In this document: in pieces, positions 48,331-49,182 of the stretch
Layout of the letters: the number at the start of each line of letters is the position of its first letter
Numbering within the stretch: position 1 is the stretch's first letter
Assembly (NCBI GenBank): GCA_031260055.1
Contig: JAIRKQ010000006.1
Coordinates: 7,713-71,712, forward strand
Direction: 5' to 3'
Source: Puniceicoccales bacterium
GTDB taxonomy: Bacteria > Verrucomicrobiota > Verrucomicrobiia > Opitutales > JAIRKQ01
DNA length: 64,000 bases
Translations under genes and position numbers: made by a program
Notes under the pieces: model-generated
Databases searched by the model: none
What the model saw: the letters and a program-made list of their open reading frames with translations, nothing else
Told to the model about the DNA's origin: nothing

Positions 48331-49182
48331 ATGTATAACACAACGAAAACAAGGCCACTCTCATTTGTATCACTAGCGATAGTATTAATTTTTCCCCTAT
48401 GTGGATATGGTGAAGTTAATACAAAAATATCTCCGCTAGACAGTAAAATACTTGTCACCATCGATGGAGGATCAGCTACGAAAAAATCTCCTATTGCTCA
48501 GGCGCTTGCTAAAAAATTCAATTTGGTTTATATTGAGACGGGAGCATTGTATCGCACAATAGCACACGTACTTATCCAGGCTGGAATTATGCCGGAATCT
48601 AAAAATGAAAACGAAATAAATGAATTTTTAGAGGATGCCAAATGCGAATGCCTTTTGGAAGACTGGAAAATCAAATTTAGCATCAATGGAGTCTGTTTGA
48701 CTGCCAAAGAATTGAGGGCAGGAGATATCAATGCCAACGTAGCCAAATACTCATCATTATTTAAGTCCATTAATGATTTTTGTACAAAACGTACTCAAGA
48801 AGTTATAAATTTGAAAGAGATCCAGGAATTCAATGGCATAGTTGCCGAAGGGCGGACGTGTGGTACATATATATTTCCAGAAGCCGATGTGAAATTTTGG
48901 CTCATGGCTGCCGATTCTGATAAGATAGATTTCAGGCTTAATGTGGAAAAAGAAGTCGATAACCCCATCGAACGCGATGAATTAGATTTTTCCCGTACGT
49001 TTCATCCAGTAGTAAAACCTAAACATGCCGTAGAAGTGTGGACATCTTCCCGCTCAATGGAAGAAAATATCGCACTAGTTTCAGCATTTGTAGAGCAAAA
49101 ATTAGATCTCAAAAAACACAGTAAACTGCAAAAATCAAAAATTATGTCGTCACGGCATCGTCAAAAACCATCGCCAATCTGA
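48331..49182 (+). CDS. cmk: Cytidylate kinase-like protein with a signal-peptide-like N-terminal extension
   Basis: VTIDG....KS..A..LAKK....YIETGALYR, VAEGR..GT.IFP.A..K, RD..D.SR; preceded by MYNTTKTRPLSFVSLAIVLIFPLCGYG. Confidence 0.75.
   Translation: MYNTTKTRPLSFVSLAIVLIFPLCGYGEVNTKISPLDSKILVTIDGGSATKKSPIAQALAKKFNLVYIETGALYRTIAHVLIQAGIMPESKNENEINEFLEDAKCECLLEDWKIKFSINGVCLTAKELRAGDINANVAKYSSLFKSINDFCTKRTQEVINLKEIQEFNGIVAEGRTCGTYIFPEADVKFWLMAADSDKIDFRLNVEKEVDNPIERDELDFSRTFHPVVKPKHAVEVWTSSRSMEENIALVSAFVEQKLDLKKHSKLQKSKIMSSRHRQKPSPI

Follow-up and report, generated by a model that had tools for sequence, protein, structure and literature searches.

Nucleoside-monophosphate kinases are textbook cytoplasmic housekeeping enzymes. 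The present locus raises the question of why a bacterial genome of under 1 Mb keeps a second copy of a cytidylate (CMP) kinase, or CMK, that carries an apparent export signal and a rebuilt active site and is under purifying selection. That such a copy, export signal included, is kept under purifying selection implies that it has a genuine extracytoplasmic role. The window is the whole stretch of DNA that was analysed (64,000 nucleotides); the genome it belongs to amounts to 938 kb in 34 contigs and is 91% complete. The reading that we favour, with moderate confidence, is that the window gene is a lineage-specific neofunctionalised CMK paralog that acts outside the cytoplasm, has no CMP recognition, and binds or converts another nucleotide-like ligand.

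The window ORF at 48331-49182 (forward strand) encodes 283 amino acids followed by a stop; the ORF list and the translation agree with the coordinates and motifs given in a preliminary description of this DNA. Its parts are listed below, with the basis of each in brackets.

48294..48320, forward strand: promoter-like element TTGCGA-N15-TATAAT, ending 10 nt 5' of the ATG (direct reading of the sequence).
48331..49182, forward strand: coding sequence of the CMK-derived paralog with the putative export signal (ORF list, translation, Pfam, AF2).
48331..48411, forward strand: predicted Sec-type signal peptide, residues 1-27, with the n-region at 1-9, the h-region at 10-24 and the c-region to GYG (sequence; counterparts in the family).
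48454..49086, forward strand: CMK-fold domain, Pfam match at residues 42-252 (Pfam, AF2, Foldseek, alignment to 1kdo).
48463..48492, forward strand: altered P-loop DGGSATKKSP, in which Gly17 is replaced by K51 and Thr20 by P54, and Lys18 is kept as K52 (alignment to E. coli CMK 1kdo).
48772..48783, forward strand: former cytosine-contact helix, with N148 at the Arg110 position and C151 at the Leu113 position (alignment).
48847..48864, forward strand: EGRTCG, in which Asp132 is replaced by T176 and Met133 by C177, and Arg131 is kept (alignment).
48922..48939, forward strand: lid segment KIDFRL, in which the canonical R..RR becomes K198..F201-R202 (column comparison with canonical CMKs).
49105..49179, forward strand: basic C-terminal tail, 3' of the conserved helix ending (A/S)F(V/I)EQK.D.K (family alignment).

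The promoter-like element leaves a short or absent leader before the ATG. A counterpart, TTGC(A/G)A ... TA(T/C)AAT, is also found upstream of the genus-level orthologs, and this conservation suggests that the window gene probably has its own promoter; a generic scan listed no promoter at 48294..48320. At the other end of the protein, the end of the C-terminal helix and a K(K/R)HSK motif are kept in many family members, and the longer tail is genus-specific.

The preliminary description had left the start codon and the existence of another cmk to be checked. There is no in-frame ATG, GTG or TTG between 48331 and the P-loop in the window sequence, which means that no canonical start leaves out the hydrophobic segment, and the starts of the orthologs fall at most five codons from that of the window protein. 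A downstream start is thus ruled out by the absent start codons together with the coinciding ortholog starts.

The assignment of the protein to the CMK fold is firm. Pfam PF02224 (Cytidylate_kin) matches residues 42-252 with 102.2 bits against a cut-off of 26, although the score for the (d)CMP kinase equivalog TIGR00017 stays below its cut-off (97.6 vs 135.55). The AF2 model has a pLDDT of 90.3 overall and of about 98 in the domain, with low values at residues 1-38; its top Foldseek matches are all CMKs (TM by target 0.83-0.89), and the beta insert of the CMK NMP domain is present. The second CMK match in the same genome, on contig C13, scores 120.6 bits in Pfam, above the window protein. This second, canonical cmk (L001:1483-2136) encodes 217 amino acids, without the N-terminal extension and with an intact G-x4-GK(T/S) loop and EGRD, and a canonical cmk also occurs in every relative that carries the paralog. 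The window gene is not the cell's cmk, and the possibility that it is the sole cmk of the genome is ruled out by the canonical gene on another contig.

To describe the active site, family positions were mapped to E. coli CMK through a profile alignment to 1kdo, and the columns were compared with those of 35 canonical CMKs. Five residues that are invariant in the canonical set are replaced: the P-loop Gly, Arg110, Gln117, Asp132 and one lid Arg. The altered columns are as follows (E. coli numbering unless stated otherwise).

Gly17, in 35/35 canonical CMKs: Lys in 97% of the family.
Thr20, in 32/35: Pro in the family.
Ser101, in 32/35: Ala in the family.
Arg110, in 35/35: Ser, His, Asn or Gln in the family, N148 in the window protein.
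Gln117, in 35/35: Ala, Ile or Thr in the family.
Asp132, in 35/35: Thr in 91% of the family.
Lid Arg at window protein position 198, in 34/35: Lys in the family.
Middle lid Arg at window protein position 201, in 35/35: Phe in 97% of the family.
Asp aligned to W237 of the window protein, in 31/35: Trp in the family.

In terms of motifs, the Walker A pattern G-x4-G-K-[ST] is replaced in the window protein by G-G-S-A-T-K-K-S-P, and the lid pattern R..RR by K..FR. The P-loop had been called “degenerate”; this holds for the Gly before the Lys (now K51) and for the Thr (now P54), but the Lys itself (K52) and the Ser next to it are retained. The reading of EGRD as EGRT was correct, the stretch being EGRTCG at 48847-48864.

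The family also keeps much of the parent's active site: Asp11, Lys18, Thr/Ser36, Tyr40, Arg41, Arg92, Arg131, the lid residue R202, Arg181, Asp182 and Asp185. The phosphate-binding residues Lys18, Arg41, Arg131, Arg181, Asp185 and Arg188 are all present in the window protein; Arg188 is kept in most family members and is variable in one clade. The Ser36 position, a cytosine contact, is Thr in the window protein. Several residues are newly invariant in the family (C177, W237, R241, N246, with C151 near-invariant) and lie around the old nucleotide sites.

In the Yersinia CMK the cytosine is hydrogen-bonded by Arg110 and Asp132, and the R110A variant is inactive (PMC3603445). Since both positions are lost here and the single R110A replacement is enough to inactivate the Yersinia enzyme, CMP kinase activity of the window protein appears very unlikely. 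Binding of some nucleotide or phosphate ligand is likely, and phosphotransfer is possible, because the catalytic Lys and most of the phosphate-binding Arg persist. The same retention of catalytic Arg and Lys also fits an active enzyme, so that a “binder” and a “kinase” are not separable by it.

It is tempting to propose a disulfide between C151 and C177; however, no homolog of DsbA (PF01323), Thioredoxin_4 (PF13462) or VKOR (PF07884) was found in the 91%-complete genome, which gives the proposal no support, and at this completeness the absence of Dsb-type genes is not established. By a crude heuristic, about 12% of the long ORFs of the genome appear exported, yet it has no DsbA, Thioredoxin_4 or VKOR match.

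The main alternative to a neofunctionalised protein in the broad sense would be an exported phosphotransferase that is active and uses a new acceptor or donor: a periplasmic or host-side nucleotide kinase that draws on periplasmic ATP in an intracellular bacterium. We consider this possible, if rather unlikely. The P-loop Lys, Arg41, Arg92, Arg131, R202, Arg181 and Asp185 are invariant, and a catalytic set that is kept while the specificity residues change is the pattern typical of changed specificity. In the sister family B described below, which has a hydrophobic N-terminus and GR(V)CG as well, the GK P-loop, Arg110 and the lid RR are intact; the TLC translocase of the genome (also below), for its part, implies periplasmic nucleotides. 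It is harder to reconcile with activity that the P-loop Gly and one lid Arg, each present in 35/35 CMKs, are now Lys and Phe, the more so as the Gly before the P-loop Lys is needed for the phosphate-binding backbone conformation.

The preliminary description had proposed an “exported pseudokinase or a kinase with changed specificity”. We agree with it that the protein is very probably exported, to judge from its signal, and is not an ordinary CMK (there is a second cmk, five invariant residues are replaced, and selection is purifying); either of its two options may hold, as the P-loop Lys and most of the phosphate-binding Arg and Asp are kept.

The evidence for export concerns the N-terminus. 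In the window protein the n-region (residues 1-9) is basic owing to K6 and R8, residues 10-24 are hydrophobic, and G25-Y-G27 fits the -3/-1 rule, so the earlier account of a CMK-like protein behind a signal peptide is borne out at both ends, by these regions and by the PF02224 match. A sequence heuristic predicts the cut by signal peptidase I between G27 and E28. In nearly all full-length family members a positive n-region leads into a hydrophobic, uncharged core (10-15 residues) and then into a c-region with A, G or C at -1 and a small or aliphatic residue at -3; these signal peptides are alike in kind, not in sequence. A crude signal-peptide heuristic was positive in 26 of the 34 family members, as compared with 11.8% of 688 long ORFs in the window genome, which makes the signal feature more than chance; most of the negative members have short or truncated N-termini. 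The genome encodes signal peptidase I (LepB). No twin-arginine motif was found in the N-termini of the family. The lipobox [LVI][ASTVI][GAS]C is not seen either: the Cys near the end of the h-region has L, Y, H or R at -1 within the genus, and its position is not conserved. The Sec-type signal shared by the family, together with the presence of LepB, makes it very probable that the window protein is exported.

In one clade (P0024-P0033, e.g. L036:5803-6696 and L040:5740-6720) the signal and the domain are separated by a basic linker, rich in Lys, Ser and Asn, of about 10-120 residues. Such a very basic linker could hinder Sec export or reverse the topology. The linker resembles a nuclear-localisation or nucleic-acid-binding stretch; the window protein has the basic C-terminal tail instead. 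In another genome of the same genus (G010, L028:371-1954) the paralog is tandemly duplicated, and the upstream copy, P0010, has lost its signal peptide, as the frame stays open for just about 19 codons ahead of it and shows no n- or h-region there. This copy may be decaying or may be a cytoplasmic variant.

The linker clade is also an argument for a different topology, in which the hydrophobic segment would be an uncleaved anchor tethering a cytoplasm-facing kinase to the inner membrane. A long Lys-rich linker could hold the domain inside by the positive-inside rule, and ATP is plentiful there. We nevertheless find this improbable: the positive n-regions of nearly all members favour an N-in, C-out orientation; short h-regions of 10-15 residues lead into sites with A, G or C at -1 and suitable residues at -3; and in the window protein the residues directly after the segment are acidic or neutral.

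As to the genomic context, the window gene lies 237 nt 3' of a needle-like ORF (47381-48094, forward strand), with a TPR chaperone-like ORF also upstream, and it converges on an ABC permease gene. The match of the needle-like ORF to PF09392 is weak (16.6 bits, where the cut-off is 29.4), and few genes nearby evolve as fast (67-82% identity to relatives, as compared with 89-96% for the flanking fabV and permease genes). Just upstream of the permease gene and on its strand is an ORF at 50998-51660 (reverse strand) encoding 220 amino acids with a strongly acidic C-terminus; it has no Pfam match at E <= 0.001, and its adjacency to the permease gene is kept in relatives.

This arrangement had suggested a link to a type III secretion system (T3SS) needle operon, and with it a host-targeted effector delivered by the neighbouring system. 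The link is not supported by comparison. Only five close relatives of the same genus share the adjacency; elsewhere the paralog sits among unrelated housekeeping genes, which in a third genus encode a peptide chain release factor with PCRF/RF-1 domains, a pyridine nucleotide-disulphide oxidoreductase, a protein with a UVR motif and an ATP:guanido phosphotransferase, and in the linker clade YidC, YebC and an H+-pyrophosphatase (H+-PPase). Because the synteny is limited to five close relatives and the other clades have unrelated neighbours, the adjacency is probably incidental. No conserved operon partner that would name a pathway was found, as the neighbours of the paralog differ by clade. The short distance to the needle-like gene, the chaperone-like gene nearby and the fact that the window gene evolves faster than most of its neighbours would suit an effector. 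The N-terminus, on the other hand, is of the classical Sec type with its hydrophobic core and does not resemble a T3SS signal, and the gene has its own promoter-like element. Taken with the restricted linkage, this makes a T3SS effector a very improbable reading.

The family is small and sharply bounded. It comprises about 34 proteins: among 5.8 billion proteins, 34 relatives were found at E <= 4e-57, and the next matches are ordinary CMKs at E >= 3e-16. In a profile search of 1.84 billion representatives, four family representatives scored at least 278 bits, followed by canonical CMKs from 157 bits down; the ESM Atlas gave only ordinary CMK clusters, mostly verrucomicrobial. All 21 loci in species-representative genomes belong to termite-gut MAGs named “Puniceicoccales bacterium” or assigned to Opitutales/Opitutia. 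The genomes that carry the family are all of 0.7-1.0 Mb, that of the window having 0.94 Mb. The isolate codes Gsp477 and Kf353 stand for the lower termites Glyptotermes and Kalotermes flavicollis (PMC11707648).

The paralog family is monophyletic (support 100/99) with a long stem, and within it the branching follows that of the canonical cmk of the same genomes. T-I-D-G-G-S-A-T-K-K-S-P and A-E-G-R-T-C-G are nearly invariant across 39-82% identity and three clades. In pairwise comparisons among six same-genus genomes, the median dN/dS of the domain is 0.19, as compared with 0.13 for the canonical cmk in the same genome pairs and 0.34 for the pre-domain part. The window gene is functional and not decaying, since this dN/dS value and the nearly invariant altered motifs exclude decay; a pseudogene reading is ruled out on the same two grounds.

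No copy of the paralog turned up in some genomes of the same genus (e.g. G007, 10 contigs), nor in the family's second genus, and the gene is therefore accessory and dispensable. Same-genus genomes without it have no gene remnants beside the conserved neighbour, the ABC permease. Although this patchy distribution and the loss of several canonical residues would suit a decaying duplicate (a pseudogene in progress), and a mis-set start on an ordinary cmk could be imagined, both can be practically dismissed in view of the dN/dS value, the intact reading frames, the altered motifs held down to about 40% identity, the canonical cmk elsewhere in the genome and the lack of a downstream start codon.

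What the favoured, neofunctionalised protein would do outside the cytoplasm is best approached through its host lineage. A nucleotide translocase of the TLC type is a hallmark of an intracellular, nucleotide- or energy-parasitic lifestyle. The window genome encodes a TLC-type ATP/ADP (nucleotide) translocase (contig C28:38073-39560, 593 bits) and also PyrG. Of the 22 genomes of the family, 21 have TLC, as do four other genomes of the order with 0.9-1.8 Mb. At E <= 1e-10, most of the free-living relatives sampled gave no match: TLC was not found in 13 of 14 larger relatives or in any of 14 control genomes, and in one 3.6-Mb relative (G033) the match is weak and partial. The “Nucleococcus cluster” consists of intranuclear symbionts of termite-gut protists with genomes of about 1 Mb (PMC8204192), and the window genome seems to fit it by its TLC, its size and its source. 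Uptake through TLC means that nucleotides cross the periplasm, and this is where an exported protein that binds or converts nucleotides would encounter its ligands.

On these grounds we presume the following course of events. The window gene would be transcribed from its own promoter; the Sec signal peptide would be cut by signal peptidase I near G27|E28, leaving a CMK-fold domain of about 29 kDa in the periplasm, from where it may stay or go further via vesicles or a secretin pathway. This domain would be devoid of the cytosine contacts (the Arg110 position being N, S or H, Asp132 being Thr and Ser101 being Ala), with a changed P-loop and one lid Arg turned into Phe, and would most likely still bind a nucleotide or another phosphorylated ligand by the kept Lys/Arg/Asp set. 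The most likely role, speculatively, would be the periplasmic binding or interconversion of host nucleotides bound for the TLC translocase.

A sister family, B, bears on the ancestry of this protein. It consists of P0128, P0268, P0269 and P0270, the last from a transcriptome of the metamonad protist Dysnectes brevis (EukProt); no members were found in the JGI metagenome scan or in 401 Verrucomicrobiota genomes. Features common to family B and the window family are a hydrophobic segment at the N-terminus, a P-loop that ends in K(S/T)P, GR(V/T)CG, Ala in place of Ser101, and small insertions. Family B differs in that its GK P-loop, Arg110, lid RR and DTT motif are all intact, and its hydrophobic segment of about 20 residues is anchor-like. 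Its own motif is GRVCG, and four of its Cys are invariant. In the tree the two families group together (support 99/95), though the branches are long and the bootstrap had not fully settled. With these catalytic features still in place in family B, the exported (extracytoplasmic) ancestor of both families was probably still an enzyme, and the window family has since changed further. For P0270, both gene transfer between symbiont and protist and contamination are possible.

A broader proposal would make the window family one branch of an undescribed group of extracytoplasmic CMK-derived nucleotide enzymes, belonging to Nucleococcus-like intracellular symbionts and to metamonads. These would work in the symbiont periplasm together with TLC and capture or interconvert host nucleotides, e.g. 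by re-phosphorylating exported or host nucleoside phosphates, in the service of energy or nucleotide parasitism, and the protist copy would record a gene transfer. We put this forward as a doubtful idea of low probability; if true, the protist copy records a transfer between symbiont and host lineages.

Even in its narrower form, as a neofunctionalised CMK paralog, the window protein is a concrete candidate for nucleotide handling at the interface between symbionts and their hosts in termite-gut protists. The family is also a natural experiment on a P-loop with Lys in place of a conserved Gly, for which the less-derived sister family is a built-in comparison.

Some known systems can be compared with it. 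In the literature searched there is no exported or secreted cytidylate kinase; the only mention is a computational list of “T3 effector candidates” of Burkholderia that includes the ordinary cmk, which is no comparable case. Pseudokinases and pseudoenzymes of P-loop kinase folds have likewise lost residues that are universally invariant in the parent while remaining under purifying selection. The window family differs from them in keeping the catalytic Lys and most of the phosphate-binding Arg, and for this reason a loss of catalysis in the family is not established.

Exported nucleotide-using enzymes of a cytoplasmic type likewise act outside the cytoplasm: Lig E is a precedent for periplasm-targeted ATP-dependent enzymes, and a secreted adenylate kinase and related enzymes have been reported in pathogens (PMC3213081). 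Unlike the window family, these enzymes keep canonical active sites, and they belong to other protein families.

The closest comparison is with the bacterial (d)CMP kinase Cmk itself (E. coli 1KDO/2CMK, S. aureus 2H92, M. abscessus 4DIE). The fold is the same, including the CMK-specific beta-hairpin insert, and the P-loop Lys, Thr/Ser36, Tyr40, Arg41, Arg92, Arg131, one lid Arg, Arg181 and Asp185 are common to both. The window family differs from Cmk in a signal peptide of the cleavable type, in the P-loop (Gly to Lys and Thr to Pro) and in its coexistence with a true cmk, and further in that Arg110, Gln117, Asp132, Ser101 and one lid Arg are replaced and new Cys, Trp, Arg and Asn residues have become invariant.
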